Shown piece by piece: positions 1 to 43,940 of a stretch of DNA of 64,000 bases; the stretch's first letter is position 1; each line of letters begins with the position of its first letter. The notes under the pieces were generated by a model. The model was given only the letters and a program-made list of their open reading frames with translations. It was not told the origin of the DNA and did not search any database. The DNA is from Gemmatimonadaceae bacterium (GTDB lineage Bacteria > Gemmatimonadota > Gemmatimonadetes > Gemmatimonadales > Gemmatimonadaceae). Made by a program: the position numbers and the translations under genes. The DNA lies in contig JANMAY010000055.1 in NCBI GenBank assembly GCA_031360095.1, forward strand, positions 175-64,174. The letters are read 5' to 3'.

Positions 1-614
1 CCGGCGAGTCGCGCCGCTTCCGCGTCGGATCCCACTGCATAGATCGCGCGGCCGATGCGGAGATGACGCAGCATCCAGCTCGCGGCCACGGTGACTGCGA
101 TGGACGTCAGCACGATGACCCAGTACGCAGACGATGGCGACAGGCCGAGCCATTGAAAGTCGGCGGGGAGGTTCTGCACCCACGCGCCTTCGGTCTGCCA
201 ACGCAGACCATCTCGCCAGGCGACGAGCATCGCAAGCGTGACGATGATCGAGGGGAGGCCGAGCACGCCGATGAGCAGACCGTTGAGCGCCCCCATCGCC
301 GCTCCGAGGGCGATCACGCACAGTGGGAGCAGCGATATCGGCACGCCTGCTTTGGCCAACATTCCGGCCGCTACGCTGCACACGGCGAACTGCGAGCCCA
401 CGGAGATGTCGATTTCGCCGATCAGGATGACCATTGTCATCCCGATCGCAACGATCAACACCGGCGCATTGTTCAGCGCCAGGTCGCGCAGGTTCGCGCC
501 GCTGAAGAAGCTCGGCGCGATGGTCGCGACGGCCAGCAGCAGCAGGATGAACGCGACGGCCGGTGGAAGGTCGCGCGTCCGCCGGCCAAGCTGCGCGATC
601 AGCGGCGTGGTCAT
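1..614 (-). CDS. Sugar ABC transporter permease (RbsC-type), N-terminal part only; the gene continues beyond the window start
   Basis: My own translation of the minus strand from the ATG at 612-614 gives MTTPLIAQLGRRTRDLPPAVAFILLLLAVATIAPSFFSGANLRDLALNNAPVLIVAIGMTMVILIGEIDISVGSQF... This is a typical ribose/monosaccharide-type permease N-terminus. The start overlaps the stop of the upstream ATPase gene (ATGA at 611-614). It is absent from the ORF track because it runs off the edge. Confidence 0.8.
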   Translation of the reverse strand, partial: MTTPLIAQLGRRTRDLPPAVAFILLLLAVATIAPSFFSGANLRDLALNNAPVLIVAIGMTMVILIGEIDISVGSQFAVCSVAAGMLAKAGVPISLLPLCVIALGAAMGALNGLLIGVLGLPSIIVTLAMLVAWRDGLRWQTEGAWVQNLPADFQWLGLSPSSAYWVIVLTSIAVTVAASWMLRHLRIGRAIYAVGSDAEAARLA

Positions 615-2140
615 GCGCCCACCGAGGGATTCGCCATGGCCGTGAACTCGCTGGTGCTTTGGCCGAGGGCGCGCGCGAGCAACCGTTCCTGCGTGGCATC
701 GGCGCGGTCGAGCACCTCGCTCACCGTGCCACCCTGCATCACGGCAATGCGATCGCTCATCCCGAGGATCTCGGGGAGCTCCGACGAGATCATGAGGATT
801 GCGACACCGCTCGCGACCAGCTCCATCATGAGCTCGTGCACCTCTGCCTTTGCACCAACGTCGATCCCCTGCGTGGGCTCGTCGAGAATGAGCATCGTGG
901 GGCGCGTGACGAGCCAGCGGCTCAGCGCCACCTTCTGCTGATTGCCTCCCGACAGGGCCGACACCAGCGTGCCGATGGACGGCGTTTTCACACCGAGGCG
1001 GCGCGTGTACTCGATTGCGACATCGCGCTCGCGCCGGAAGTCGAGCGCGCCAAAGCGCGTCATGGTCCCGAGCGCAGCGAGCGTGATGTTCTCGGACACC
1101 GGCATTTCCAGAACGACCCCGTGCCGACGCCGATCTTCGGGCACGTACGCGATTCCGTGCGCGATGGCGTCGGACGGCGAGTGGATCTGAACGCGCTTGC
1201 CGCGGACGAGGATCTCACCTGCGTCGATCGGCGTGAGGCCGAAGATCGTGCGCGCCAATTCGGTTCTTCCCGCCCCCACCAAACCGGACACGCCAACAAT
1301 TTCACCGGCGTGCACAGTCAAGCTGACATCGTGCACTCCGCTGGCCGAGCATCCAACGCGTTTCAACTCGAGCACTGGGTCGCCGATCGGCACCGTGCGT
1401 TTGGGAAACACCGCCGACAGCTCGCGGCCGACCATCATCTGAATGAGCTGTTCGCGATTCACCTCCCGCATATCGTAGGTGCCCAGCGTCCGTCCATCGC
1501 GCAACACCGTGACGCGGTCGGCAATCGCCGACAGCTCTTCCAAGCGGTGCGATATGTAGATCATCGCCACGCCGTGCGCGCGGAGCTGTCGAATCACGCG
1601 GAACAGGTTCTGCGCGTCGTCATCGGAGAGCGACGCGGTGGGCTCGTCGAGGATGAGCACCTTAGCGTCGGCGCCCAATGCGCGCGCGATCTCCACGAGC
1701 TGCTGCTCCGGCATGCTGAGATCGCCGGCTTCCGCATCCGGATCGATCCGCGCACCCACCCGCGAGAGCAGCTCCAGCGCGCGGCGCTTCCGCTCGGCCC
1801 AATCGACGCGACCGCCAAGCCCAGCGCGCTCCCAACCGATTGCGATGTTCTCGGCGACGCTGAGCTCGGGGAACAGTGCCGGTTGCTGATAGATCGCTGT
1901 AATTCCCATCGCGCGCGACGCACGCGGGGAGTGATCGCGCACGAGATGTCCCGCGACCTCTACCTCGCCTGCATCCGCGACGACCGCACCCGTCAGGATC
2001 TTGATGAACGTGGACTTCCCCGCACCGTTCTCACCAATGAGCGCATGGACTTCCCCCGCGCGCAGCTCGAGCGAGGCGCCCGCGAGTGCCTGAACTCCCG
2101 CGTATGCCTTCGTGACACCCGACGCGCGGAGAGCGAGCAT
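611..2140 (-). CDS. Sugar ABC transporter ATP-binding protein with two fused ABC cassettes (RbsA/MglA-like)
   Basis: 509-aa ORF. Walker A GENGAGKST lies near the N-terminus and the second cassette carries the LSGGNQQK signature. There is an 11-nt gap to the upstream rhaEW gene and a 4-nt overlap with the downstream permease. Confidence 0.9.
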   Translation of the reverse strand: MLALRASGVTKAYAGVQALAGASLELRAGEVHALIGENGAGKSTFIKILTGAVVADAGEVEVAGHLVRDHSPRASRAMGITAIYQQPALFPELSVAENIAIGWERAGLGGRVDWAERKRRALELLSRVGARIDPDAEAGDLSMPEQQLVEIARALGADAKVLILDEPTASLSDDDAQNLFRVIRQLRAHGVAMIYISHRLEELSAIADRVTVLRDGRTLGTYDMREVNREQLIQMMVGRELSAVFPKRTVPIGDPVLELKRVGCSASGVHDVSLTVHAGEIVGVSGLVGAGRTELARTIFGLTPIDAGEILVRGKRVQIHSPSDAIAHGIAYVPEDRRRHGVVLEMPVSENITLAALGTMTRFGALDFRRERDVAIEYTRRLGVKTPSIGTLVSALSGGNQQKVALSRWLVTRPTMLILDEPTQGIDVGAKAEVHELMMELVASGVAILMISSELPEILGMSDRIAVMQGGTVSEVLDRADATQERLLARALGQSTSEFTAMANPSVGA

Positions 2141-2151
2141 CGCGATCGCCG

Positions 2152-4361
<2,210 letters not shown>

Positions 4362-4365
<4 letters not shown>

Positions 4366-5801
4366 TGTATTCGGGAATTGGCTGATCGAGGAATGAATTC
4401 GGTGACTCGTGTGCTCCGGCGCGCGGCCTCGCGAACGGACACCCCCGCTGGCAAGTCTCCCAGCGCGCGCGCCTGCACGAGCAGGTTGCCGAGCACCGTG
4501 GCTTCTTCCGGCCCGGCCAGCACCCGCCGGTCGCATGCATCCGCAGTGAGCTGATTGAGCAGCGTGTTGCGCGCACCGCCGCCCACGATGTGGACATCTG
4601 TGATCGGCGATGCGATGAGGCCTTCAAGTTCGCGCAGCGTCGATGCGCAACTCTCGGCAAGGCTGTCGAGGATCAGCCGCACCAACGCGCCGCGGCCTTC
4701 GCCGAGCGTGATCCCGTTCACGACGCACGCGGCGTGGATCTTCTCGGCCATGCCACCGCGCTCACCGAACTGGGGCGCGTCGAGATCGAGCGTCCCGTTG
4801 GACGTCGGGGCATCGGTCGCCTCGGCGAACAGCACGTCGTACGAGGGACGTTCGCCCTTCTCCGCCCACTCTCGACAGCACTCTTCGAGCACCCACATTC
4901 CCGTGCGATTCTTGAGGAAGCGAATCGTGCCGTCCAGACCGGACTCGTTCGTAAAACCTGCCTCACGAGCATGGTCGCTTGTGATCGGCGCATCGAGCTC
5001 CGCACCCACCAGCGACCACGTTCCGGAGCTCACGAACGCCCATCCGCTTTCCCCAGAAGCGGGCACCGCGGCAACGGCGGCCGCCGTGTCGTGCGCACAT
5101 GTCGCGATCACGAGCGGCGCGCTCGCATATCCATCCGGAAGCGCGCCAGGCACCGCCGCGCCAAGGGTCGTGCCGGCCGGTACGATGCGCGGCCAGCGCG
5201 ACGGATCGTCACCGATGGCGCATATCAGTGGCTCGGACCACTCGCCCGTGCGCACGTTCATGAGCTGCGTCGTGCTCGCCATGGTGCGCTCCGCCACCGC
5301 CTTTCCGCTGAGCAAAAACAGGAAGTATTCGGCGATGGTCAGCCGGGTCGCCGTTCGCGCGAGCAGCGCCGGCTCGTCTTCGACATCGGCCACGATCTGC
5401 GAGATCGTGTTCAGCTCGAGAAACTGAATGCCCGTTTGCCCATAGAGCGCCTTGGCGCCACCGGCGAGACGAGTGGCCGTGGCGAGTCGCCCCTGTGTCC
5501 GCGAATCGCGATAGGCATACGGGCGGCGCACCGCGACGCGCTGTTCGTCGAGCGGCACATAATCGACGGCCCACGAATCAACCGAGATCGAACGCAGCGA
5601 GGGCACGGTACTCAGCGCCTCGCTGACGCCGCGCCGGATCTCCGTCCACATCGTCGCGATGTCCCAGTACAGATGCCCCTTCTCCTCGAGGATTGGCGTC
5701 CGAAAGCGATGGACTTCCTGTGTGCGCATGCAGTCGCCATCCCATGTGCCAACGATCGCGCGCCCGCTCGATGCGCCGAGATCGATGGCCAGATAGCTCA
5801 T
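4362..5801 (-). CDS. rhaB: Rhamnulokinase (FGGY carbohydrate kinase family)
   Basis: 479 aa. N-terminal motif MSYLAIDLGASSGRAIVG and C-terminal FGGY motif HIVGGGARNTLLNQLTADA. It sits between the isomerase and aldolase genes with ATGA overlaps on both sides. Confidence 0.85.
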
Positions 5802-7060
5802 TCCGTGCGCTCACTTGCCTTGCGGGCGCGGTATCCCGATGCGCGAAAGGCGGCGATCGGATCGAGTGCTCCGCCGGCGCGGCGTCGCGCTTCGGCGACA
5901 AGCGGTCGCGCGTCGGCCTCGAACGCGTCCTTGAGCGTGCGCTCCGCCATCAGCACGTCACCCGCATCCTGATACTCCGCGAGCGCTCGGCGATCGACGA
6001 GCAGCGCCTTCGCGTACGCGAGCTGCAGCTGATCGACCGTCTGCAGCAACGCTTCGATTGGATCCTTGATGTTGTGGCTCTGGTCGATCATGTACGCCGG
6101 CCGAAATCCCGCGAGCTTCTCGCGCTCGGCGAGCACGAGCTCGTGGAATACGAGAAACAATCCGTATGGCTTGATGGATCCAGCCGTGAGATCGTCGTCG
6201 CCGTACTTCGAGTCGTTGAAGTGAAAGCCGCCGAGCTTTCCTGCGCCCAACAGCCGCGCCACGACGAGCTCGATGTTCGTGTTTGGCAGATGATGGCCGA
6301 GGTCCACGAGACACTGGGCGCGGTCGCCGAGCGACTGCGCGAGCAAGAGCGAGGAGCCCCAGTCCTGCACCACGGTGGCGTAGAAGGCCGGCTCGTACGG
6401 TTTGTGTTCAGTGAACAGTCGCCATGTGCTCGGCAGCGATGCATACACGTCGCGGAGACAGTTGAGCACGCGGTCGAAGCTTCCGCGCAGCGACATCTGG
6501 CCGGGATAATTCGAGCCGTCCGCCAGCCAGATGGAAATGGCGTCCGACCCCAGCGCCTGACCGATTTCGATCACATGCTGATGGTGTTCCACGGCTTGGC
6601 GACGCACGGCGGGATCGGGATGGCTGAACGATCCGAGCTTGTAGCTCAACGGCTGGCCCGGCTGATCCTGGAACGTGTTCGAGTTCACGGCATCGAACGC
6701 CAACCCGAGCAGGGCCGCCTGCTCGCGCAGCGCGGCGGCGTCTTCGGGCTCGTCCCACGGGATGTGCAGCGATACGCGCGGTGTCGCGCCGGTGAGCTGA
6801 TGGACGACCGCCGCATCTTCGAGCTTTTCGGCGATCGTGCGTGGCTCACCGGGACCGGCGAATCGGCCGAACCTGGTACCGCCGGTGGTGAAGGCCCACG
6901 AGGGCAGCGCCACCTCGAACTTTCGAACGGCGACGATGCACTCGTCCATCTGCACGCCCCGTCGCGCGAGCCGATCCGACAGCGCAGCGAGATCGTCCTC
7001 GTGCGCGTGAAGCGTCCGCGCGTCTGCGGTGGTCTCGATGGTCGGACGACTGAATGTCAT
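5798..7060 (-). CDS. rhaI: L-rhamnose isomerase (xylose-isomerase-like TIM barrel, RhaI type)
   Basis: ORF 5798-7102 trimmed to the ATG at 7058-7060 (MTFSRPTIETT...), giving 420 aa. It resembles the ~430-aa Pseudomonas stutzeri/actinobacterial-type rhamnose isomerases. It is the first gene of the rhaB-rhaEW-ABC operon. Confidence 0.75.
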   Translation of the reverse strand: MTFSRPTIETTADARTLHAHEDDLAALSDRLARRGVQMDECIVAVRKFEVALPSWAFTTGGTRFGRFAGPGEPRTIAEKLEDAAVVHQLTGATPRVSLHIPWDEPEDAAALREQAALLGLAFDAVNSNTFQDQPGQPLSYKLGSFSHPDPAVRRQAVEHHQHVIEIGQALGSDAISIWLADGSNYPGQMSLRGSFDRVLNCLRDVYASLPSTWRLFTEHKPYEPAFYATVVQDWGSSLLLAQSLGDRAQCLVDLGHHLPNTNIELVVARLLGAGKLGGFHFNDSKYGDDDLTAGSIKPYGLFLVFHELVLAEREKLAGFRPAYMIDQSHNIKDPIEALLQTVDQLQLAYAKALLVDRRALAEYQDAGDVLMAERTLKDAFEADARPLVAEARRRAGGALDPIAAFRASGYRARKASERTE

Positions 7061-7094
7061 GCCCCGAGGGATGGAGGGCTGGCGCCACGACGTA

Positions 7095-7110
7095 GTGCAC
7101 AAATGTGCAG
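7095..7110. promoter_or_regulatory. Putative operator: near-perfect 16-bp palindrome GTGCACAAATGTGCAG
   Basis: Read directly from the sequence. It lies 35-50 nt upstream of the rhaI start, in the 131-bp gap between rhaI and the TonB receptor gene. A perfect copy, GTGCACAAATGTGCAC, occurs at 11882-11897. Confidence 0.55.
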
Positions 7111-14389: not shown

Positions 14390-17149
14390 CTACCGACCGC
14401 GCACTTTCGCCGCGAGCGCTGACGCGAGGTACGTGAACGTGTAATCCCCCGATCCGACCTCGAGATCAACGACGTCGTCCGATTGCTTCGCGCCGGTGAC
14501 TGCGGCTCCGCGCTCCCGCACCTGCTCGAGCCGCGCACCCGGCAAATGAATCGACGCCCGCGCATTCGCCGGCACGCGCACGGTCACCTGCATGGTGTCG
14601 CCAGCGAGCGTCCATCCGGATGCCGCTTCGCCGTAGGGGGTGACGAGCGATGCACGCGCGAAGGTGAATGCACCGCCCGGCTGCGGCCGGATCACGAGAT
14701 GCCGGTAGCCCGGCTGCGCGGGATCCATGTCGAGGCCGGCGACAACGCGATACAGCCAATCGCCGACCGCGCCGTATGCGTAGTGGTTGAACGAATTCAT
14801 CCCCTTGTCCTGAAAGCTGCCGTCGGGCTTCTGGCCGTCCCAGCGCTCCCAGATCGTCGTCGCACCCTGCTTCACCGGATACAGCCATGAGGGATACCGC
14901 TCGTTGAGCAGCAGGCGATACGCTTCGTCCAGATGCCCCGTCTCGCTCAGCGTGCGGGTCAGCGCCGGTGTGCCGAGAAAGCCAGTGGTGAGGTGGCGCA
15001 TCGAGGTGACGTCCGCGGCGAGGCGGCGCGCGGCTTCCATGCGCATCGCATCGGACACCAGTCCGAAATCCAATGCGAGCACGTATGCCGTCTGCGTGTT
15101 CGACGTCATGCGGCCGCTCGAGCTGATGTACTCGCGCTGGAACGCCGTCCGGATCTCGTCGAAGAGCGTGCGATACGTGCGAGCGTCGTCGGTCTTGCCC
15201 AGCGCGACGGCACTGCGGGCCAGAATATCCGTCGAATGCGCGAAGTACGCGGTGGCGATGAGATCTTTGTCCGTGGTCGCGCCCGGGTAGTCAGCACGAG
15301 TGGTAGAGAACGCGAGCCAGTCGCCGAAATGCTGGCCGTTCGTCCAGAGATGACTTGCACCAGCTTTCGTATTCATGTATTCGACCCACGCGCGCATGCT
15401 CGGATACTGCCGCTCCAGTACACGCGTGTCGCCGTACACCTGATACATCGTCCACGGCACGATCACGCTGGCGTCGGCCCAACCCGCGCTCGTGCCCGCG
15501 GCCGGCGCGGTGCGCGACAGGACATCGGGGATCACCCACGGCACGCCCCCGTCCGGTTTTTGGTCCGCGGCCAAGTCACCGAGCCACTTCGCGAAGAACC
15601 CGCTGACGTCCATGTTGAACGCCGCAGTACGCGCGAACACCTGCGCATCTCCGGTCCACCCGAGCCGTTCGTCTCGCTGCGGACAGTCTGTGGGAATGTC
15701 GAGAAAGTTGCCGCGCTCACCCCACACGATGTTGTTCTGGAGCTGATTGACAAGCGAATTCGAGCTCTCGAACCGTCCGGTCGTCGCCATGTCCGAATGG
15801 ATCACGATCCCCGTGATCGCATCGAGCGTGGGCGTGCCGGGATAGCCCTCGACGGCGACGTAGCGGAATCCCTGGAAGGTGAAGTGCGGCTCGTACGTCT
15901 CGACGCCACCGCCCTTGAGGGTGTACTGCACTGTCTCCTGTGCGCCGCGCAGGTTCTCCGTGTAGAAGTTGCCCGCCTTGTCGAGCACCTCCGCGTGACG
16001 GAGACGAACGCTCGTGCCCGCGGGGCCGCTCACGCGCAGCCGTACCCATCCCACCATGTTCTGCCCGAGGTCGAACACGGTTTGCCCCGAGGGCGTCTGG
16101 AGAAGCTTGACCGGCTTGAGCTCCTGCATGCGACGAACGGGTGGACCCTGCGGCGCGATCAGCGTAGCGGTGATCCCGTCGAGCGTGCGCACGCCGCGCC
16201 AGCTGCGATCGTCATACTGCGGGCGACTCCATCCCTCGCGCTCGAGTCGGGCGTCGTACGTCTCGCCATCGTAGATGTCGGAGACGATGATCGGACCGGT
16301 TGCGGCCTTCCAGCTGGTATCCGTACTGATGATTTGCGAGCGGCCGTCGGCATACTGGACAACGAGCTGCGCGAGCAACGCCACACGCGTACCGTAGTTG
16401 TTCCGCTTGCCGCTGAATCCCATGTGGCCGCGATACCATCCGTCGCCGAGTGTCGCGCCGAGTGTGTTGGCTCCGGATTGGAGGAGCGACGTGACGTCGT
16501 AGGTCTCATACTGAATGCGCTTGTCGTAGCTCGTCCATCCTGGCGAGAAGAGATGATCGCCGACGCGGCGTCCATTGAGCTCCATCGCATTGAGTCCCAG
16601 GCTCGTCACGTAGAGGCGCGCCGACGCGATGCGTCCGCTGAGCGCGAATTCGCGACGGAGCATGGGGCTCGGGTTCGAGCGCGTCGTGTCTTCGGGGAGA
16701 TCGGGGGTGACCCAGCGCGCCTGCCAGTCGGACGTGTTCAGCAATCCCATTTCGAAGTACGCCGGCATGCTCCACGGCGAAGCGCGTCCGGCATCGTCCC
16801 AAGCCCGCACTTGCCAGTAATAGCGCTTCCCCGATTGCAGCGCCGGCCCGCCGTACAAACGGAAGATGGATTCGTCGCTCGCCACCCGCCCGGAATCCCA
16901 GATCAGGGTTCGTCCGAACGCCGTGGAATCAGGCGCGACCCGAATCTGATACGCGCTCTGCATCGTGCTGCGACGAGTAGCGTGGAGACGCCAGCTCAAT
17001 CTCGGCGAGCGGACATCGGTGCCGATGGGATTCTGATGGTACTCGGTTCGCAGATTCTCGAGGTGGAACTCCTGTGCGGAGATGGCCGCCGGGAACGCAC
17101 TCAGCGCGAAAAGAGCGATACGAAGTGCTGCGCGTGCAGTCATGGTCAT
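14390..17149 (-). CDS. Alpha-L-rhamnosidase, glycoside hydrolase family 78
   Basis: ORF 14390-18232 trimmed to the ATG at 17149 (MTMTARAALRIALFALSAFPAAISAQ signal). GH78 hallmarks are LENLRTEYHQNPIGTDVRSPRLSW and DCPQRDERLGWTGDAQVF. The upstream 1083 nt of the ORF lies antisense to the GH16 gene and has no signal peptide or recognisable domain. Confidence 0.9.
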   Translation of the reverse strand: MTMTARAALRIALFALSAFPAAISAQEFHLENLRTEYHQNPIGTDVRSPRLSWRLHATRRSTMQSAYQIRVAPDSTAFGRTLIWDSGRVASDESIFRLYGGPALQSGKRYYWQVRAWDDAGRASPWSMPAYFEMGLLNTSDWQARWVTPDLPEDTTRSNPSPMLRREFALSGRIASARLYVTSLGLNAMELNGRRVGDHLFSPGWTSYDKRIQYETYDVTSLLQSGANTLGATLGDGWYRGHMGFSGKRNNYGTRVALLAQLVVQYADGRSQIISTDTSWKAATGPIIVSDIYDGETYDARLEREGWSRPQYDDRSWRGVRTLDGITATLIAPQGPPVRRMQELKPVKLLQTPSGQTVFDLGQNMVGWVRLRVSGPAGTSVRLRHAEVLDKAGNFYTENLRGAQETVQYTLKGGGVETYEPHFTFQGFRYVAVEGYPGTPTLDAITGIVIHSDMATTGRFESSNSLVNQLQNNIVWGERGNFLDIPTDCPQRDERLGWTGDAQVFARTAAFNMDVSGFFAKWLGDLAADQKPDGGVPWVIPDVLSRTAPAAGTSAGWADASVIVPWTMYQVYGDTRVLERQYPSMRAWVEYMNTKAGASHLWTNGQHFGDWLAFSTTRADYPGATTDKDLIATAYFAHSTDILARSAVALGKTDDARTYRTLFDEIRTAFQREYISSSGRMTSNTQTAYVLALDFGLVSDAMRMEAARRLAADVTSMRHLTTGFLGTPALTRTLSETGHLDEAYRLLLNERYPSWLYPVKQGATTIWERWDGQKPDGSFQDKGMNSFNHYAYGAVGDWLYRVVAGLDMDPAQPGYRHLVIRPQPGGAFTFARASLVTPYGEAASGWTLAGDTMQVTVRVPANARASIHLPGARLEQVRERGAAVTGAKQSDDVVDLEVGSGDYTFTYLASALAAKVRGR

Positions 17150-17398
17150 AGAGGATGAGGGCGGAACAGCGGTTTTTCTACCGCAGAGGCGCAGGGACCG
17201 CAGAGGACGGCAACAGCAGGCCTCACGCGCACCTTGGACTTGCTTTCGGTTTGGTCGAAGCGCAAGTACGGGTGGCGCGTCGTAGGAACAGTCCGCCCGT
17301 TCCAGCCCTTTCCGACTCTTCCCCAAATTCAGTTGCGATTCGTCCCTGCCATCTCTCGTGAGCCGTTGCAGTTTCCGGGTCGATCCCGGTATTCCCGG

Positions 17399-18226
17399 AT
17401 GATCGTTTTTGCATTCTCCGTCGCACTGGCCGCACCTGCGGAGTCGCAGCGAACCGCCGTTCCCGGATATCGACTCGTGTGGTCCGACGAATTCGATCGC
17501 GACGGTTGGCCCGATCCGAGAAAGTGGACCTACGAGCGCGGCTTCGCACGCAATCAGGAGCTGCAGTGGTATCAAGCCGACAATGCGCGCGTGCAGAATG
17601 GGATGCTGATCATCGAAGCGCGCCGGGAGCAGAAGCCGAATCCGCTGTTCGTGCCGGACAGCACTGACTGGAGGCGGAAGCGGCCGAACATCGAGTACAC
17701 ATCGTCGAGTTTGACGACACGGGGGCTGCACAGCTGGCGCTACGGCCGCTTCGAGATGCGGGCGCGCATCGACGTGCGGCCGGGAATGTGGCCGGCGTTC
17801 TGGACCGTGGGCGACGGCGGACGCTGGCCCGCCGGTGGCGAGATCGACATCATGGAGTACTACGCCGGCATGCTCCTGGCCAACGTTGCGTGGGCGGACT
17901 CGGCAGGGCGCGCGGTGTGGGACGACACGCGCACACCGCTTGCCGAGCTCGGAGGCCCGGAATGGTCTCGGCACTTTCACTCGTGGCGCATGGAGTGGGA
18001 CGAGGACGCAATTCGACTGTCCGTCGATGGAAGGCTTCTCAACACCACCGATCTCCGCGAAACCTTCAATCGAAGCGGTTCGAACGTCAATCCGCTGCGG
18101 CAGCCGCATCACATCATCTTGAATCTCGCCGTCGGCGGCACGCAGGGCGGCGATCCTTCGGCGACGCGCTTTCCGGCGCGCTTTGAGGTGGATTACGTGC
18201 GAGTCTACCAGCGCACTCCGCGCTGA
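17399..18226 (+). CDS. Glycoside hydrolase family 16 (beta-glucanase/laminarinase-like)
   Basis: ORF 17234-18226 trimmed to the ATG at 17399 (MIVFAFSVALAAPAESQ). GH16 catalytic motif GGEIDIME (E-x-D-x-x-E) and the typical YRLVWSDEFD N-terminal strand are present. Confidence 0.85.
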   Translation: MIVFAFSVALAAPAESQRTAVPGYRLVWSDEFDRDGWPDPRKWTYERGFARNQELQWYQADNARVQNGMLIIEARREQKPNPLFVPDSTDWRRKRPNIEYTSSSLTTRGLHSWRYGRFEMRARIDVRPGMWPAFWTVGDGGRWPAGGEIDIMEYYAGMLLANVAWADSAGRAVWDDTRTPLAELGGPEWSRHFHSWRMEWDEDAIRLSVDGRLLNTTDLRETFNRSGSNVNPLRQPHHIILNLAVGGTQGGDPSATRFPARFEVDYVRVYQRTPR

Positions 18227-18286
18227 TCGCACGTGCCAACATCGCGTCGGCCGCGAGCGTACTGCTTAATCGACCCCCATCACACC

Positions 18287-21200
18287 ATGACCGTGTCTTC
18301 TCAGCGTCTGGCAATCACGTGCGCCCTCGTTCTCGCGTCGGCGTCCTCTCTCCGCGCGCAGAACCCCGCGCAGAATCCCGCTCCGGCGCCCACGCCAATT
18401 CCCTCGAGCGGTCCGCTGCCGCGCAACGCCGCGCGTGAACAGGATTTGCTCCGGCAGACGAAAGCGCCCGACGGCTTCACCGTCACGGTCTTCGCCGGCG
18501 CGCCGGTGGCGGAGTATCCCACCTGCCTGGCGAATTCGCCCGACGGCGCACTCTTCGTCTGCGTCGACCCGAATCTTTCTCTCTCGGTCCACAAGGGCAT
18601 CGGCCGCATCGTCCGGCTCGTGGATGACGATCGCGACGGACGCGCCGACCGCTACACCGTGTTCGCGCAGATGGACAGCCCGCGCGGGGCGTTCTTCGAT
18701 GGGTCGACGCTGTATGTCATGCACCCGCCTTTTCTCACCGCGTATCGTGATACCAACGGCGACGGGATCGCCGATGAATCCGATGACCTCGTGAAGGGAC
18801 TGGGGTTCGACCTCGACTTTCGCGGCGCCGACCACACGACCAACCAGATCACGATGGGGATCGATGGCTGGATCTACGTCGCGGTCGGGGACTACGGCTA
18901 TCAAAAGGCCGTCGGCAAGGACGGCGCGACGATCGGCAACCGCGGCGGCAGTGTGGTGCGCGTGCGACCGGATGGCACGGGCCTCGAGATCTACGCCGTG
19001 GGCACCCGCAATATCTACGATGTGGCGCTCGATCCCTTTCTGCACGTGTTCACGCGCGACAACACCAATGACGGCGACGGCTGGGACACGCGGCTGCACT
19101 ACATCCCGGCGTTGGCGCACATGGGCTATCCCATGTACTACAAGAACTTCGCTGGCGAACACATGCCGTCGCTGCACGACTACGGCGCCGGCGCAGGAAC
19201 GGGCGCGGTGTGGGTGCAGGATCCCGGATTTCCCGCCGGCTACGACAACGTTCTGTATACCGGCGACTGGACCATGAACAAGGTCTTTCGCAACGCGACG
19301 ACGTCCAAGGGCGCGAGCTTCGACGTGCAGCAGGACCAGTTTCTTTCGATACCGCGTCCATCGGACATGGTCATGGATGCGAACTCGAACATGTACGTTG
19401 CAACGCTCATTGGCGGCACGTTCACCTACGTCGGCGATACGGTGGGCGGCGTGGTGCGCGTGAGCTATCCCGCCACATCGGGCGCAGCCGCGCCGCTGTT
19501 GTCTGCACTCGGCAACAGTGAGCTGATGGACGCGCTCGTTGGCCCGTACGCGGAACGCAGGCTTCAAGCGCAGCGCGAGCTGCTGCGTCGCGCGCGGCCG
19601 GGCAGACTTCGCGCCTGGTGGACCCGACGGTCCATCGTCGGCCGGCTTTCCGAGCTCACGCTCGACGCGAGGCGCCCCGACTATGCGCGCGTCGCCGCCA
19701 TGTTCACGCTGAAGCAGATTGCCGGGGTTTCCTCGCACGACGTGCTGTTGCGCGTTGCCGACGATCCAGCGATGCGCGCCCTGGCGCTGCATGCACTCGC
19801 CGACGACACTCGGCAGCTTGCCGGGGTGAGTACGAGCGTGTTCGTGCGTGCGCTGTCCGACCGCGATCCACGCGTACAGCTTCAGGCAATCGAAGGGCTC
19901 GTCCGACTCGGCGCTCATGATGCGGCAGCGTCAATCGTTCCGCTGACGGGAAGCGCGGATGCGGCAATCGCGCACGTCGCGGTGAAGGCCCTCGTCGCTC
20001 TCGATGCCGGTGCGGCGGCGCTCGCCGTCCTGGATACCGCGACACCCGACGTGCGCCGCGGCGCATTGCGTGTACTCGAGCAGATGCACAATGGAGCGTC
20101 CGTCAGCGGATTGATCGCGCGCTTTCGCACGACGAATGACGCGTCGGCTCGGCGTGATGTGCTCGCGGCGCTCGCGCGTCTGTACAACCGCGAAGCGGCG
20201 TGGAAGGGCGAGTGGTGGACGACGCGCCCCTCGTTCCTCGGCCCGTACTTCGCGCCCACACCGTGGGAGGAGAGCGCCACGATCCGTCCCGTGCTGCGCG
20301 ACGCGCTCCTCGCGGCGAACGGCGCCGACCTTGAAACGCTCGCGACTGAGCTCGCGCGCAACCGTGTGTTGCCGCAGGGAGCGAAGTCGATTGTCATCGC
20401 CCTGGCAGCACCGAATGATCAATCGCGCACCGAGGTGATCGACGCGCTCGTCGGCACATCGCATCTCGAGACCGCGGCGATCGCCATGCTTCCGTCGCTC
20501 GACAAGCGGAGTCCGGTGCTGCATTCCGCCGTCGCGCAGTTGCTCGCCGGTGAGACCTCAGTCGGCGAGCAGCTGCTCCCCCTGGTCAGAACCGGCGCGC
20601 TCGACTCCACCCTCGACGCCGAAATTCGCGGACGGCTCCTCAACTCCGTCGCACAGATGTCCGATTCGTCGGCGCGCGCCACATCGACTGAGCTGTTCGT
20701 CCGCACCGTGCCCGGTCCGGCAACACCAGCGCCGGTCGAGGCGGCATGGCGTCGGTACGTCGGCGACAGACGTCGCGGAGCGGAGCTCGACCAGTGGGTT
20801 CGTCTGGCACAAACGGGCGACCCGGCGCAGCGCACGCTCGCATTCTCCGTGCTCGCGCAGGGAATTCGCGGACAGCGCGTTCCGCCCGCGATTCGCAACA
20901 GAGTCGTACCGGTGATCGACGCGGCGTGGTTCGATGCAGCAGCGACGCCGAGTCTCGTGCAGGCGATCCGCGTGATGAAGCTGGAGAGTCAGTACGCCAA
21001 CCATCTGACGGCGTACGACCAGGCGCTCGTCGCGCAGGAGAATGCGCGAAAGGGAATCGTCGTGGTGAACGCACTCAAAGCCCATCCCAAGGAATGGATT
21101 CAGCTCTGGAACGGGCGCGATCTTCAGAATTGGGACATCAAGTTCAAGGGGCGCCCGGTCAACGAGAATTACAACGATACGTTCCGCGCCGAGAGCGGAT

Positions 21201-22312
21201 TGTTGAAGGTGCGATACGACAAGTGGAACGGCTTCAAGGGAGAATTTGGGCACATCTTCACCCGGCGTCCGTTCTCGAATTACATCGTCGCGGCGGAGTA
21301 TCGCTTCGTCGGCAACCAGGTCGCGGGCGCCGGCCCGCAGTACGCCTGGGCACTCCGCAACAACGGCATCATGATCCAGTCGCAGTCCGCGGCGAGTATG
21401 GGGATCGATCAGGATTTTCCCATCTCGCTCGAGGTGCAGCTGCTCGGCGGACTCGGCACCGGTCCGCGCTCGACGGCCAACCTGTGCACTCCGGGCACGA
21501 ACGTGCACTTTGGCGATTCACTGATCACGCAGCACTGCATCAACTCGATTTCGAGGACCTACGACGGCGATCAATGGGTCCGCGTCGAAGCCCTGGTGCT
21601 CGGCGACTCGATCATCAAGCACATCGTGAATGGCGACACGGTGATGACGTACCGCAAGCCGGAAATGGGCGGCGGCAGCGCGAACAACACGGCGCCGGGT
21701 GTGCTCGTTCCCGGCAAGCCTCTCACCGAGGGCTACATCACTCTACAGGCTGAGACGGCGGAGATCGATTTCCGGAAGGTTGAGCTCCTCGAGCTCAAGG
21801 GTTGCATGAATCCGAAGGCAAAGGAGTACAGACGTCACTTCATCGTGTCGGATCCGAGTGCGTGCAGCAGCGCTGCCGGCGAGCAGACCAAGGCCGTAGC
21901 CGAAACGGCTCCGTCGCCGGGGGCAGCAGCGCCACGCTCCGATGCCGAAGGACGACGTGTGTACTCGACGACATGCGTCGCGTGCCATCAGGTGAGCGCG
22001 CTGGGACTGCCTCCGCAGTATCCGCCGCTCGCGGGAAGCGAGTGGGTTACGGGCGACGAGCGCCGGTTGCTGCGCCTCATCCTGCACGGGCTCGTCGGGG
22101 AGGTGAGCGTCGCCGGCGAGACGTTCAACGGGGCAATGCCTGGCTGGGGACCGATGTTGAAGGACGCGGAGATCGCCGCCGTCGCGACGTACATTCGCGG
22201 CAACTTTGGAAACAAGGCCGCGCCGGTGAGCGCGGCGGCAGTTGCGCGCGTGCGCAAGGATTTTGCAACGCGCACGACGCCATGGACTGCCGCAGAACTG
22301 ACAAGACCTTGA
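18287..22312 (+). CDS. Multidomain secreted protein: PVC-type 'membrane-bound dehydrogenase' beta-propeller + HEAT repeats + DUF1080 (3-keto-disaccharide hydrolase-like) + C-terminal c-type cytochrome
   Basis: ORF 18233-22312; the ATG at 18287 gives MTVSSQRLAITCALVLASASSLRAQ. The N-terminal propeller resembles glucose/sorbosone dehydrogenase-like proteins of Planctomycetes/Verrucomicrobia. A HEAT-like region is rich in leucine and alanine. The DUF1080 block runs WIQLWNGRDLQNWDIKF...GYITLQAETAEIDFRKVEL. The heme site CVACH is encoded at 21974-21988. Confidence 0.75.
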   Translation: MTVSSQRLAITCALVLASASSLRAQNPAQNPAPAPTPIPSSGPLPRNAAREQDLLRQTKAPDGFTVTVFAGAPVAEYPTCLANSPDGALFVCVDPNLSLSVHKGIGRIVRLVDDDRDGRADRYTVFAQMDSPRGAFFDGSTLYVMHPPFLTAYRDTNGDGIADESDDLVKGLGFDLDFRGADHTTNQITMGIDGWIYVAVGDYGYQKAVGKDGATIGNRGGSVVRVRPDGTGLEIYAVGTRNIYDVALDPFLHVFTRDNTNDGDGWDTRLHYIPALAHMGYPMYYKNFAGEHMPSLHDYGAGAGTGAVWVQDPGFPAGYDNVLYTGDWTMNKVFRNATTSKGASFDVQQDQFLSIPRPSDMVMDANSNMYVATLIGGTFTYVGDTVGGVVRVSYPATSGAAAPLLSALGNSELMDALVGPYAERRLQAQRELLRRARPGRLRAWWTRRSIVGRLSELTLDARRPDYARVAAMFTLKQIAGVSSHDVLLRVADDPAMRALALHALADDTRQLAGVSTSVFVRALSDRDPRVQLQAIEGLVRLGAHDAAASIVPLTGSADAAIAHVAVKALVALDAGAAALAVLDTATPDVRRGALRVLEQMHNGASVSGLIARFRTTNDASARRDVLAALARLYNREAAWKGEWWTTRPSFLGPYFAPTPWEESATIRPVLRDALLAANGADLETLATELARNRVLPQGAKSIVIALAAPNDQSRTEVIDALVGTSHLETAAIAMLPSLDKRSPVLHSAVAQLLAGETSVGEQLLPLVRTGALDSTLDAEIRGRLLNSVAQMSDSSARATSTELFVRTVPGPATPAPVEAAWRRYVGDRRRGAELDQWVRLAQTGDPAQRTLAFSVLAQGIRGQRVPPAIRNRVVPVIDAAWFDAAATPSLVQAIRVMKLESQYANHLTAYDQALVAQENARKGIVVVNALKAHPKEWIQLWNGRDLQNWDIKFKGRPVNENYNDTFRAESGLLKVRYDKWNGFKGEFGHIFTRRPFSNYIVAAEYRFVGNQVAGAGPQYAWALRNNGIMIQSQSAASMGIDQDFPISLEVQLLGGLGTGPRSTANLCTPGTNVHFGDSLITQHCINSISRTYDGDQWVRVEALVLGDSIIKHIVNGDTVMTYRKPEMGGGSANNTAPGVLVPGKPLTEGYITLQAETAEIDFRKVELLELKGCMNPKAKEYRRHFIVSDPSACSSAAGEQTKAVAETAPSPGAAAPRSDAEGRRVYSTTCVACHQVSALGLPPQYPPLAGSEWVTGDERRLLRLILHGLVGEVSVAGETFNGAMPGWGPMLKDAEIAAVATYIRGNFGNKAAPVSAAAVARVRKDFATRTTPWTAAELTRP

Positions 22313-23037
22313 TGGTGAGGGCGGTCGCGCTCGCCATGGCTCTCGCACCCGCCGCTGCGGGAGCGCAGATCCTCCCGACGACCCTGTCCACTACCGCGCG
22401 GCATTCGGCCGGAGCGGCAGGGGTCTATGCGCAGCCACTCGGCGAGTTCGGCCAGAACGTGAAGCGTGGGTTCGGCCTCGATGGCGCGGCAACCTACGGT
22501 GTCGACTCGCGTGGCATCTTCGGTCTGCGCGCCGAGCTCGGGTATCTGAGCTACAACACCAAGCGCGAGCCCTTCTACGCCAACACCGGCTTCGGCGTCG
22601 TGGAGCTCGAGTCGGAGACCAAGAGCGGCGTCCTCACACTCGGCGTGGGTCCGCAGCTCTCCGTGCCGGCGGGTCCCGTGCGTCCATATGTCGCCGGCAC
22701 GTTTGGGTTCGCGCGGTTCGCCACCGAGACGGCGATCAACGTCCCGGCGCGAAACTCGAGGACCGGTACCACGGAGACGCTCGACAAGCAGACCGTGTCG
22801 AGCGACTTCGTCCGTTCGCTCGCCGCGTCGGCGGGAATCGCGATGGAGTTTTCCATGGTGGGTCGGGGGATTCTCATCGACATCGGCGCGCGCTATCACA
22901 AGAACGGGCAGGCGCGGTACGTTTCGTCCGAGGGCGTGAAGTACACGAGTGGATCTCCGACGCCCACGGTCACGGCGACGGAGAGCCAGGCCGATTTCGT
23001 CGTGTATCGTCTCGGAGCAATCTTCCCCATTCGGTGA
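22312..23037 (+). CDS. Small outer-membrane beta-barrel protein (OmpW/porin-like, family uncertain)
   Basis: ORF 21802-23037 trimmed to the ATG at 22312 (MVRAVALAMALAPAAAGAQ signal), which overlaps the stop of the preceding gene (TGATG). 241 aa with alternating hydrophobic beta-strand periodicity and an aromatic residue near the C-terminus (RLGAIFPIR). Confidence 0.55.
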   Translation: MVRAVALAMALAPAAAGAQILPTTLSTTARHSAGAAGVYAQPLGEFGQNVKRGFGLDGAATYGVDSRGIFGLRAELGYLSYNTKREPFYANTGFGVVELESETKSGVLTLGVGPQLSVPAGPVRPYVAGTFGFARFATETAINVPARNSRTGTTETLDKQTVSSDFVRSLAASAGIAMEFSMVGRGILIDIGARYHKNGQARYVSSEGVKYTSGSPTPTVTATESQADFVVYRLGAIFPIR

Positions 23038-23047
23038 CGCCGCACGC

Positions 23048-25201
23048 TTACGGCATCGGGCGCAATTTCTCCCACTGCACGTTCCAACCACGCGCTGGAA
23101 ATCCCGGCGCGTGCGTCGTTGGTGCTCCGTCCCATCCGGCGGCCATCATCGCGATCGCGCTGAGCAGCGCACCGTTGCCGGGGAGATAAATGCTCAATCC
23201 GGTGCGCTGATAGTTGTGACCGTTCGGCAGGAAGCGGTTCTTCGGCATGTCCATCATCAGCGCATCGATGGCGATCTCCGGCTCGCCGAGCCGCGCCGCC
23301 GTCATCGCGACCATCGGATAGTCCCAGCCCCACGTGTCGTCCCACTGCCAGGTCTCCATCACGCGATGCAGTGTGCGGCGCATCGCGTCGCGATCGATGC
23401 GAGGCGACGGAATGAAGCCGAACGCGGCGAGCAGTGTCGGATGATCGCGTCGCTGATCGGCGTTCGTGAAAGTGTCGGGCGCTGATTCCGCGTTGACGTA
23501 GAGCCCGTCGCGCATCGGCATGGCTGACAGACGCTGTATCACGCGGTCCCACGTCGGCTCGCGCGCGAGTCCCAAACGTTCGCGCCACGTCTGCGCCGTG
23601 CTCAATCCGAATGCCCAGTAGGAGAGCTCGAAGGCGGGATTGAATGTCGCCGCTGGCGGGTGGCTCTCCTGCGCGGGGATGAGCGGCGGACCTAGGACGT
23701 AGCGTTTAGTCGCTTCATCCCAGAAGGGATAGGACGCCATGAACGACGCGCTTTCGTGCACAATGACGCGATACCGATCCAACACGCCGCGGGTGGGTCG
23801 CGCGCGATACACGAGCTCCGCCATGTAGATCGGATGCGGCTGCTGCCAGATCAGAAATGCCCCCACACCCGACGGGCTCTCGCGCCCATCGGGTCCGATC
23901 ATCTTTGGCCAGCGCACGCCGTCGTACCCTTGTCTGCGGGCCGTCTCGCGGGCGCGCGGCAGAATCCGCGAGTAGAACGGCAGGCTCTTCTCGAGCATTG
24001 CCGTGCGATTCCAGAGCGCGAAGTGCGCCGCGTGCCACCAGTGCATCTCGAGATGGAACTTGCCGAACCAGCTGTTGAACGTCTCGCCGGTCTCCTGCGG
24101 CGGGAGCGAACCGGCGCATTGAATGGCGGTGAGGTACTCCGACAGCACGATGCGGCGTTCGAGCTCCTTCGCGCGAGGATCGCGACTCCCAGAGAGATCG
24201 ACCACGCCACCCCGCGTCCAGAATTGCTCCCAGTGTCGCGCGCTGGCGGCGATGACGTCATCGACCGATGGCAGCGCACTCGACTGCTCGGTCGGCGAGA
24301 ACTCGATGACGACGTCGAATCGCGCACTGCCCCGCGCCGGTGCCAGACGATACGCGTGCTCGCTTACCTGCTCGAGCGTGCCGCCGCGCGACCAGCCCGC
24401 TCGCGCGCGATAGCTGTCGGCATCGAGGGTACGTTGCCAGTCGGCTGTTGTCCGGTCGCGCCGCGTGATCGACGTCTGGTGACGCTCGGCGTGTGCCCAG
24501 TCAGACGGGCTCCCCGTATGAAGTGCTCCACCATAAGGAAATGCAATGTCGATCGCGAGCCAGCGCGCGTCGAGATCATACGACTCGATTCGCACGGCAA
24601 TCGCATCGCGCGTCGGGTGCGACCAGGTGTGCACGCGCACGATGCGATCGTCGATCGTGAACCGGCTGTCGAGGGTGCCGCTCCAGAGATCGAGACGCTG
24701 TCGCATGTCCTGCACGTCGGCGGGCCGCGCGCCGTCGCCGTCGCGTCGATGCAGCGCGAAGCCCACGCGCGCCAGCGACAACCGATGTGGATTCTCGCGC
24801 AGCCACTTGCCCGCGTCGCTGTTTTGCGCGCTCGCATACGGCACCTGACGTCCATGCGCATCGTAGGACACAAGCGCCTGCTCCAACCGATGCCCCTGCG
24901 GATTTGGAAAGGTGTGCCAGCCCCACTCGGCCTGCGTTGCGAGTGGGATCTGCGTGTACACGTCGCTGAAAGTCTGAAGTCCTGTCGCATCCGCCGTGAA
25001 GGCGAACGCGCCGTTGCCAACGCTGAGTGGCGCGAGCGGGTCCAACGAGCGCACTACCGGGGAATGCCGCGCCACGCGCGCGCGGCGGTCGATCGCTGCG
25101 CGCGGCGTGAGCTCCGCGAGTCGACGGCCGACCAATGGGCCGTGGAGCGACATCACGGCAAGCCGCTCCGTGAGTGATTGCAGAAAATCCCGACGATGCA
25201 C
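23048..25201 (-). CDS. Tat-signal secreted protein, putative glycoside hydrolase with sandwich + (alpha/alpha)6-like architecture; family not recognised
   Basis: 717-aa ORF with a GTG start at 25201. The twin-arginine motif is MHRRDFLQS. The N-terminal LSVGNGAFAFTADATGLQTF and RQRLDLWSGTLDSRF resemble the N-domains of GH65/GH95-type enzymes. The central FGKFHLEMHWWHAAHFALWNR is a tryptophan/histidine-rich helical region. It is the last gene of the GH106-like/GH95 operon. Confidence 0.5.
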   Translation of the reverse strand: MHRRDFLQSLTERLAVMSLHGPLVGRRLAELTPRAAIDRRARVARHSPVVRSLDPLAPLSVGNGAFAFTADATGLQTFSDVYTQIPLATQAEWGWHTFPNPQGHRLEQALVSYDAHGRQVPYASAQNSDAGKWLRENPHRLSLARVGFALHRRDGDGARPADVQDMRQRLDLWSGTLDSRFTIDDRIVRVHTWSHPTRDAIAVRIESYDLDARWLAIDIAFPYGGALHTGSPSDWAHAERHQTSITRRDRTTADWQRTLDADSYRARAGWSRGGTLEQVSEHAYRLAPARGSARFDVVIEFSPTEQSSALPSVDDVIAASARHWEQFWTRGGVVDLSGSRDPRAKELERRIVLSEYLTAIQCAGSLPPQETGETFNSWFGKFHLEMHWWHAAHFALWNRTAMLEKSLPFYSRILPRARETARRQGYDGVRWPKMIGPDGRESPSGVGAFLIWQQPHPIYMAELVYRARPTRGVLDRYRVIVHESASFMASYPFWDEATKRYVLGPPLIPAQESHPPAATFNPAFELSYWAFGLSTAQTWRERLGLAREPTWDRVIQRLSAMPMRDGLYVNAESAPDTFTNADQRRDHPTLLAAFGFIPSPRIDRDAMRRTLHRVMETWQWDDTWGWDYPMVAMTAARLGEPEIAIDALMMDMPKNRFLPNGHNYQRTGLSIYLPGNGALLSAIAMMAAGWDGAPTTHAPGFPARGWNVQWEKLRPMP

Positions 25202-43835: not shown

Positions 43836-43940
43836 CGCGACGAATATGCTTCGCTCTCGCCGCCGCGATAGGCCGAACCGGGCGTGTCTCTTGCACTCGG
43901 CTAGCACATTCGCGACTCATCACCTCTGGCCGGAGGCATC

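Follow-up and report, generated by a model that had tools for sequence, protein, structure and literature searches.

What reaction would call for a sugar-dehydrogenase-like β-propeller, a HEAT-like α-solenoid, a DUF1080 domain and a cytochrome c on one exported polypeptide? The question is raised by a gene at 18287..22312 (+ strand) of a 64,000-nucleotide stretch of DNA from a Gemmatimonadaceae bacterium (contig JANMAY010000055.1, positions 175 to 64,174), which was analysed over its whole length and is called the window below. As judged from gene order in its relatives, the encoded protein, P0001, is a single-chain fusion of a conserved Gemmatimonadota operon. We consider the chances about even that it acts as a periplasmic, respiration-linked oxidative glycoside-cleaving enzyme.

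Domain layout and split counterparts

The open frame runs from 18233 to 22312 on the + strand, and translation from the ATG at 18287 gives a protein of 1341 residues with the following parts.

18287..22312, + strand: main gene, 1341 residues (P0001); from the open frame, its translation and the four-domain orthologues P0003, P0004 and G180.
18287..18358, + strand: predicted Sec signal peptide, residues 1-24, cleavage after LRA; from reading of the sequence.
18446..19486, + strand: six-bladed β-propeller, DUF7133, sGDH-like, with His183, Arg241-Asn242 and an acidic loop; from Pfam, AlphaFold2 (AF2), Foldseek and hhalign.
19499..21061, + strand: HEAT-like α-solenoid, residues ~405-925; from Pfam HEAT_2 and the family profile against the PDB.
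21086..21871, + strand: jelly roll of the DUF1080 (3-keto-disaccharide hydrolase) family, residues 934-1195, LQAE1156T variant; from Pfam, Foldseek and motif alignments.
21872..21940, + strand: flexible Ala/Pro-rich tether; pLDDT (predicted local distance difference test) <50, beginning where stand-alone DUF1080 proteins end.
21941..22309, + strand: class I cytochrome c domain, C1230xxC1233H1234 and Met1284; from Pfam and PDB sequence matches.

The N-terminus, MTVSSQRLAITCALVLASASSLRA followed by QNP, reads as a Sec-type signal peptide in which neither a lipobox nor a twin-arginine motif was seen, and by this reading P0001 is an exported protein. Pfam places DUF7133 (PF23500) at residues 54-349 (1e-30; 107.8 bits against a cut-off of 27, and below the score of canonical paralogues in the same genome, which reach 354 bits), HEAT_2 at residues 488-569, 3keto-disac_hyd/DUF1080 (PF06439) at residues 936-1167 (7.7e-27; 95 bits against a cut-off of 26.8) and Cytochrome_CBB3/Cytochrom_C (PF13442/PF00034) at residues 1220-1304. 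The domain order proposed in the initial annotation (propeller, HEAT repeats, DUF1080, CVACH haem domain) is borne out by these matches and by the motifs, as are secretion and the DUF1080 assignment, for which Foldseek also recovers the jelly-roll fold. Its description of the propeller as a "membrane-bound dehydrogenase" holds in part: DUF7133 is matched, whereas TIGR02604 (NCBIfam) scores 105.7 bits, under the curated cut-off of 122.2, and TIGR02603 (NCBIfam) is practically unmatched at 14 bits, with 68.15 required. P0001 is therefore a relative, not a curated member, of the "PVC-type" (Planctomycetes-Verrucomicrobia-Chlamydiae) class.

When the PDB was searched by sequence with the whole protein, the DUF1080 domain and family profiles, only cytochrome c, HEAT-like chains and weak DUF1080 matches came back, and the propeller had no sequence-level relative there. 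The solenoid, about 500 residues long, carries the conserved motifs WWTTRPSF (643-650) and AWRRYVGDRRR (820-830), and its family profile matches alphaRep/HEAT proteins alone. The AF2 model of the cytochrome part was poor (pLDDT 30-60) and was set aside.

The window has a G+C content of 64-66% and comes from a 4.59-Mb metagenome-assembled genome in 540 contigs that is 90% complete. Because independent four-domain orthologues exist in two Joint Genome Institute (JGI) metagenomes (P0003 and P0004, 70% identity) and in the closed genome G180 (a 1342-residue frame), the fusion is, on this comparison, no assembly artefact. Homologues of P0001 fall into four length classes: propeller-HEAT (~900 residues), propeller-HEAT-cytochrome c (P0005, 1071 residues), propeller-HEAT-DUF1080 (~1170 residues, many members) and the full four-domain form. 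Chains that lack the cytochrome have a gene for a 160- to 200-residue cytochrome c directly downstream; for P0047 and P0053, both propeller-HEAT-DUF1080, this small gene comes next and overlaps by 16 and 4 nucleotides, respectively. The separate genes of such relatives are translationally coupled. The parts are separated further in locus L030, in the order DUF7133-HEAT, DUF1080 (1-nucleotide overlap) and cytochrome c, and in locus L031, in the order DUF1080, DUF7133-HEAT, PF01261 TIM barrel, DUF1080 and cytochrome c. The operon in L031 adjoins a rhamnose operon, a TonB receptor and Gfo/Idh/MocA genes. The C-terminus of the stand-alone DUF1080 protein (...DPAACR*) coincides with the start of the Ala/Pro linker in the fusion. 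Stand-alone DUF1080 and TIM proteins of relatives bear lipoprotein signals, the TIM protein also a twin-arginine translocation (Tat) signal, and the whole set is therefore predicted to be periplasmic.

The arrangement was surveyed in 80 loci from species-representative genomes with hidden Markov models (HMMs) built from the operon parts; these were built on Gemmatimonadota sequences and are insensitive outside the phylum. DUF1080 lies adjacent to the propeller-HEAT gene and on the same strand in 29 of 35 evaluable Gemmatimonadota loci, and in 14 of the 29 it is fused in frame. A TIM-barrel gene stands between the propeller-HEAT and DUF1080 genes in 14/35, and a cytochrome c gene lies downstream in 18 of the 21 loci with enough flank. 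Six split operons carry, between DUF1080 and cytochrome c, a major facilitator superfamily (MFS) transporter of the nucleoside:H+ symporter family (PF03825, 1e-101; for example at 11701-13035 in L045 and 11821-13182 in L044), a hint that the substrates or products may be small glycosides, possibly nucleosides.

Other fusions occur as well. P0146 is an independent one with the order DUF1080-DUF7133-HEAT-cytochrome c, and in P0175 (1144 residues) and P0198 (1586 residues) a DUF1080 with Glu at the position occupied by Glu1156 in P0001 is joined to Laminin_G_3 domains and a propeller of the canonical GSDH kind. A dockerin closes the chain of P0175. By its acidic composition and Tat signal, P0198 looks haloarchaeal; an impression by eye that the N-terminus of P0198 is cupredoxin-like had no Pfam support and is not claimed. 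In L024, a 1175-residue ThuA-GSDH-PKD-cytochrome c-CBM6 protein (1593-5117) is encoded beside a propeller-HEAT/TIM/cytochrome c operon.

The haem domain named in the initial annotation was found as a CxxCH motif, C1230-VAC-H1234, with a distal Met, Met1284 in GAMPGWG, as the likely axial ligand, so that haem attachment is predicted. Motif and Met are conserved in fused and stand-alone homologues, and the genome carries cytochrome c biogenesis genes. Among PDB sequences the domain comes closest to the cytochrome c tethered to the Cu-nitrite reductase of Ralstonia (3.6e-18) and to Thermus c552, and it also matches cytochrome c subunits of membrane dehydrogenases for glucose, alcohol and fructose. 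Since P0005, L057 and PVC relatives pair propeller-HEAT with cytochrome c without DUF1080, the cytochrome belongs to the propeller-HEAT part and is, in these gene comparisons, its constant partner. The PVC relatives, at 50-55% identity, come from Isosphaeraceae, Tundrisphaera lichenicola, Chthoniobacter and Pedosphaera; beside most PVC homologues the survey HMMs, insensitive there, found no DUF1080, TIM or cytochrome c.

Proposed glycoside oxidation and its alternatives

The propeller was modelled by AF2 with a pLDDT of 86.8 and a pTM (predicted template modelling score) of 0.90. Its top Foldseek matches are pyrroloquinoline quinone (PQQ)-dependent sGDH/aldose dehydrogenases (2ISM, 1CQ1, 3DAS, 3A9G and 7CDY), the first four at E values of 1e-11 to 1e-13 and TM scores of ≤0.73 normalised on the target, and these are followed by AA12 enzymes. 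An hhalign alignment to Escherichia coli YliI, itself of low probability (E 0.019), sets DH183TTN on NHFGG, which holds the catalytic His, and GTR241N242 on GIRN, the Arg-Asn pair that contacts PQQ. His at the catalytic position is conserved in all six DUF7133 paralogues of the genome, and the place of the EHGP(x)GGDE segment is taken by an acidic loop, R257DNTNDGDGWD267, that is invariant.

The DUF1080 domain matches 3U1X, 4JQT, 8RR2/9FBE ("3-keto-glycoside eliminase/hydratase"), BT2 (8TDA, 3OSD) and AL2 (8V31) in Foldseek, with CBM66 also among the matches. By motif alignment, BT2 residues Glu103, Asn134, Glu164, Gln166 and Gln273 have apparent counterparts in E1004 (EYR), N1025/N1026 (NNG), E1049-x-Q1051 and Q1154, whereas no counterpart could be assigned to Tyr190 or Lys245.

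The operonic PF01261 TIM protein of the relatives matches 8TCD/8TCS/8TCT (~4e-29) and 8BVK (3.6e-21). We take the first three to be AL1/BT1, going by entry names and numbering only and not by any text. The fourth, 8BVK, is the structure of AtOGE, an enzyme that removes the aglycone of 3-keto-O-glucosides by elimination (PMC10628242). A 76%-identical copy of the TIM protein lies in the orthologue locus L001, and a 74%-identical copy on contig C427 of the source genome, with an A-type DUF1080 and a SorC-type regulator as its neighbours:

C427 (locus L029), 1-4240: SorC-type sugar regulator fragment, PF01261 protein, A-type DUF1080 lipoprotein, beta-lactamase-fold protein and DUF3597.

By homology, this short contig holds partner genes of the operon.

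In the proposed scheme, the propeller, with His183 as general base, Arg241-Asn242 and the acidic, metal-type loop 257-267, would oxidise a glycoside hydroxyl, most likely to a 3-keto-glycoside, and its electrons would pass through the tethered haem c to the respiratory chain. In the manner of BT2/AL2, the DUF1080 domain would then eliminate the aglycone and/or hydrate the glycal, or it would at the least bind the glycan, and the TIM eliminase of the pathway would be supplied from elsewhere in the genome, by contig C427. Substrates would here be rhamnose-bearing glycans or oligosaccharides on which the neighbouring GH78/GH106/GH95/GH16/GH31 enzymes would also act; the redox cofactor of the propeller would be scavenged PQQ or something else, and the products of the cleaved sugar would be imported. 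The oxidative glycoside-cleavage route suggested in the initial annotation thus finds strong comparative support in the split operons and the TIM-eliminase homology, whereas the missing DUF1080 His, the missing PqqC and the lack of carbohydrate-active enzyme (CAZyme) linkage outside the subclade of P0001 speak against it. Its sugar-oxidising module is supported by the sGDH-like fold, the His and the Arg-Asn pair and undercut by the GSDH score, the lost carboxylate Arg pair and PqqC; for its 3-keto-glycoside-cleaving module, family and fold agree, the canonical His is replaced by Glu1156, and the fusion partners suggest a binding role.

Several observations weigh against this scheme. In the DUF1080 domain, P0001 has LQAE1156T where canonical members, paralogues in the same genome included, have LQDHG. 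Glu1156 aligns with the His of 8RR2 and with the Asn of 9FBE, a glucal complex of the same protein for which depositors exchanged the His to trap substrate; deposition of a His form and an Asn form of one protein suggests that this His is catalytic. In BT2 the corresponding His275 contacts the sugar 2-OH (bioRxiv 10.1101/2024.03.25.586180). The position equivalent to Tyr190 also appears to differ in the motif alignment. Glu is the hallmark of a large DUF1080 subfamily (315 cluster representatives at E≤1e-30) and is kept to ~40% identity. Members of this subfamily are also fused to carboxylesterase, beta-lactamase-fold, sulfatase, BD-FAE esterase and amidohydrolase domains, and since such promiscuous fusion is typical of binding modules, the DUF1080 of P0001 may be a carbohydrate-binding module.

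A binding role is what would be expected if P0001 were a periplasmic C1 aldose dehydrogenase of the sGDH/Asd/AA12 kind, the main alternative, which we find rather doubtful. It would oxidise free reducing sugars (rhamnose, fucose or oligosaccharide ends) to lactones, with electrons passing via cytochrome c to respiration and a non-catalytic, CBM66-like DUF1080. All characterised structural neighbours of the propeller oxidise C1, and the His-to-Glu exchange, the CBM66 match and the fusions to esterases and a sulfatase fit as well. So do the other modules found in place of DUF1080 or near the family: a second family member in the window has an F5/8C (CBM32-like) domain instead, the Tundrisphaera homologue in L083 also carries F5/8C, and the neighbour in L024 carries CBM6. 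This reading, however, leaves unexplained the TIM-barrel eliminase homologue in 14 operons and the two DUF1080 paralogues with their own lipoprotein signals that flank a propeller gene. Nor does it account for a DUF1080 subfamily that is mostly stand-alone (260-310 residues) and keeps many polar residues to 40% identity.

For the propeller, the difficulty lies in the cofactor. Pfam GSDH (PF07995) scores just 16.7 bits against a cut-off of 25, and by eye the PQQ-carboxylate Arg-x-Arg of sGDH/YliI is not conserved C-terminally, the R-I-R of YliI corresponding to a variable P(R/H)P(S/A)D in DUF7133 proteins. PqqC (TIGR02111) was not found in the 90%-complete source genome or in a 97%-complete genome of the same genus, nor was it detected in any of 15 DUF7133-bearing Gemmatimonadota genomes, the source genome included (10 from the family sample and 5 further, 2 closed). 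The search is valid, since it detects PqqC in 6 other genera. Carriers may take up PQQ from outside. A more far-reaching possibility, which we put forward tentatively, is that the DUF7133 propeller-solenoid represents a third, hitherto overlooked class of glycoside 3-dehydrogenase next to the GMC-FAD and Gfo/Idh/MocA-NAD enzymes. Lacking endogenous PQQ, it would reduce its dedicated cytochrome c by means of a metal site or of a cofactor either novel or scavenged, and the Glu-variant DUF1080 would be a new catalytic subtype of 3-keto-glycoside eliminase/hydratase.

The missing PqqC is equally what one would see if the propeller-solenoid cleaved bonds itself as a cofactor-independent glycosidase or lyase, with the cytochrome serving sensing or regulation or being unrelated. 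Further down among the Foldseek matches stand metal-dependent lyases and lactonases with six-bladed propellers (Vgb, PAL and Drp35). Lac161_ORF7, a family member studied as purified protein, reportedly hydrolyses lactose with no cofactor added, freeing glucose with a Km of 1.8 mM and a kcat of 13 s-1 (PMC5342196), and for this reason the class, which the initial annotation had called essentially uncharacterised, is not wholly so. The enzyme came from E. coli BL21, and the accessible parts of that report describe no host beta-galactosidase control; its cosmid was active in S. meliloti and not in E. coli, a pattern also compatible with dependence on a cofactor or on cytochrome maturation (PMC5342196). 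Moreover, conservation of a fused or adjacent cytochrome c across phyla speaks for redox chemistry. We regard the glycosidase or lyase reading as very improbable.

Taxonomic scope and gene neighbours bear on the proposal as well. Pfam scans of five PVC homologues gave a fused cytochrome c and no DUF1080, so the DUF1080 link is shown for Gemmatimonadota alone, plus scattered fusions elsewhere. Within Gemmatimonadota, the subclade at 70% identity keeps a carbohydrate setting (SusC/SusD, GH106, GH78, GH16, PF01261, PL22-like and rhamnose operon). P0003 and P0004 lie behind SusC/SusD with GH106, GH78 and GH16, the GH78 being downstream of both, and P0005 (L005) and P0108 (L031) stand next to the same rhamnose operon. 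The SusC-like/SusD-like pair directly before P0003 and P0004 (L001 1310-5988 and L002 1206-5898) forms a Bacteroidota-style polysaccharide utilization locus in Gemmatimonadota metagenome contigs. The G180, P0047 and P0053 orthologues and L030 are without CAZyme neighbours; their surroundings hold DsbD, thioredoxin, sigma/anti-sigma, MsrPQ-like, PadR or peptidase genes. By gene order, linkage to CAZymes is confined to the P0001 subclade.

Such neighbours would be natural for a redox enzyme with a non-glycan substrate, or for a mainly structural propeller-solenoid protein, whose position in a glycan locus was incidental. The MFS symporter in six operons could likewise point to small N- or O-glycosides, not polysaccharides, as substrates, and a propeller joined to a solenoid resembles, by analogy, the architecture of membrane coats (PMC2799638). 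Invariant polar pocket residues and an obligatory cytochrome c partner nevertheless point to an enzyme, the constant partners DUF1080 and the PF01261 eliminase homologue belong to sugar-acting families, and the P0001 subclade is repeatedly linked to rhamnose and CAZyme genes. A non-glycan or structural role is thus unlikely in our view.

The surrounding locus

The genes around the main gene were assigned as follows.

17234..18226, + strand: GH16 gene (Pfam PF00722), its stop 61 nucleotides before the main-gene start.
14390..17150, - strand: GH78 alpha-L-rhamnosidase (Pfam), with a signal-peptide start near 17150.
22312..23037, + strand: possible 241-residue β-barrel-like open reading frame (ORF), uncertain as a gene, its start overlapping the main-gene stop (TGATG).
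23048-25201, - strand: 717-residue protein, convergent with the main gene; no Pfam or PDB sequence match.
25377-27815, - strand: GH95 (Pfam).
27817-30480, - strand: GH106 (Pfam).
611..7102, - strand: rhamnose catabolic operon with ABC ATPase, RhaEW-like, FGGY kinase and RhaI-like genes (Pfam).
41130-43907, - strand: second paralogue, DUF7133 (4e-74), HEAT, cytochrome c and a C-terminal F5/8C (CBM32-like) domain (Pfam).

The GH16 gene and the main gene probably form one transcription unit. The genes further to the left of GH78 encode an SGNH esterase with a fused PL22-like propeller, GH31 and a TonB-dependent receptor; the right side also holds a trypsin-like protease. Pfam assignments of the neighbours thus confirm the glycosidase setting (GH16/GH78 on one side, GH95/GH106 on the other) that the initial annotation had described, and by predicted gene content the locus is a rhamnose-glycan locus.

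The 717-residue protein is a conserved neighbour, with a 76%-identical homologue at the same position after P0005 in L005. For the 241-residue ORF, a signal peptide and an alternating β pattern are seen in the translation and GC3 is 0.82; it has no Pfam match and no homologue in related loci or in the rest of the genome. Two longer frames were rejected as drawn. The 1280-residue "GH78" ORF (14390-18232, - strand) is not accepted at full length, its first ~340 codons being antisense to GH16, and the 367-residue ORF at 21988-23091 (- strand) is an antisense shadow of the cytochrome c domain, rejected because its sole matches in related loci lie opposite their cytochrome c genes.

A 16-bp palindrome, GTGCACAAATGTGCAC, occurs at 7095-7110 and 11882-11897, before rhaI and the esterase-lyase gene. 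At ≤3 mismatches, GTGCACAAATGTGCAC has 6 matches, with both strands of the two sites counted, against 0.5 expected. Because no copy lies near the GH16/main-gene promoter, the palindrome gives no evidence for shared regulation, and a promoter and terminator scan was uninformative. Elsewhere in the window, a 532-residue NHL-like ORF comes after the second paralogue, and a gene for a PD40-repeat Ser/Thr kinase precedes one for a three-domain multicopper oxidase (36222-37610, + strand).

Comparison with known systems

Among the uncharacterised exported families of Planctomycetota, Verrucomicrobiota and some Gemmatimonadota, the propeller-HEAT-cytochrome c proteins count as one of the most expanded; the source genome alone encodes about seven. 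The fusion and the split operons tie this family to DUF1080 lyase/hydratases and TIM 3-keto-glycoside eliminases, enzymes whose chemistry was solved in 2021-2024, and the tie provides a first concrete biochemical hypothesis for it. No paper joining DUF1080 with this propeller family was found in the literature. The present analysis contributes an operon survey with counts, the connection to TIM eliminases, the exchange of His for Glu and the absence of PqqC in carriers. If the proposal is right, soil bacteria would possess a respiration-coupled, hydrolase-independent means of glycoside cleavage that annotation of carbohydrate turnover misses, NCBI names for such proteins being "family 16 glycoside hydrolase" or "hypothetical", and a sugar-oxidising propeller would be at work in organisms unable to make PQQ. 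Should the propeller-solenoid indeed be a third class of glycoside 3-dehydrogenase, a function would follow for the very large "PVC-type haem-binding" family in Planctomycetota, Verrucomicrobiota and Gemmatimonadota.

The best structural matches of the propeller, sGDH/Asd (1CQ1, YliI, 3DAS, 3A9G) and AA12 (6JT5, 6I1T), share its His and Arg-Asn in alignment. They differ in that identity is ~14-19%, GSDH stays under its cut-off, the PQQ-carboxylate Arg pair is not conserved and the known enzymes oxidise C1. AA12 CcPDH reportedly combines several domains, a binding module among them, in a haem-linked sugar oxidase (PMC6881810). The PVC-type haem-binding CxxCH proteins (TIGR02604 plus TIGR02603), which include Lac161_ORF7 (PMC5342196), have the same propeller-HEAT-cytochrome c architecture, whereas P0001 has a cytochrome of the c552/cbb3-subunit-III type, not TIGR02603, and a DUF1080 inserted before it. 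AtOGE (8BVK; PMC10628242) is homologous to the operonic PF01261 gene and to the C427 copy, which lies outside the fused protein; the homologue in relatives has a Tat signal and a lipobox, indicating a periplasmic lipoprotein.

The systems closest to the proposed pathway are those that proceed through 3-keto sugars. A GMC-FAD or Gfo/Idh/MocA-NAD glycoside 3-dehydrogenase was found neither in P0001 nor in the 3- to 6-gene operons of its relatives, Gfo/Idh/MocA genes lying only further off, in L031, L020 and L083. What those operons do share with 3-keto systems is a TIM eliminase homologue and DUF1080 linked to a cytochrome c electron outlet (14/35 loci for the TIM gene, 18/21 for cytochrome c). 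In LacABC of Caulobacter crescentus and in Agrobacterium G3DH, a periplasmic glycoside 3-dehydrogenase is found with DUF1080 (PMC9007349). The likeness includes the linked DUF1080 and would extend to the periplasmic location, the cytochrome c electron acceptor and a 3-keto intermediate in glycoside catabolism. The oxidising subunit of LacABC is an FAD-containing GMC oxidoreductase with a small subunit, whereas P0001 would use an sGDH-like DUF7133 propeller carried by a HEAT solenoid; P0001 is, in addition, one polypeptide and has a Glu-for-His variant of DUF1080.

Alternative glycoside cleavage by BT2156-BT2160/AL1-AL3 of Bacteroides and Alistipes (PMC8121099; bioRxiv 10.1101/2024.03.25.586180) uses a TIM 3-keto-beta-glycoside lyase, a DUF1080 lyase/hydratase and an oxidising enzyme, a set mirrored in the split operons of the relatives. 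Its oxidant is an NAD-bound Gfo/Idh/MocA protein in a redox-neutral cycle, whereas electrons would leave the relatives' operon via cytochrome c, and the counterpart of BT2 His275 is Glu in P0001. P0001 would thus follow the logic of LacABC with DUF1080 and of BT2156-BT2160, and differ from both by another oxidising module and by its organisation as a single chain.

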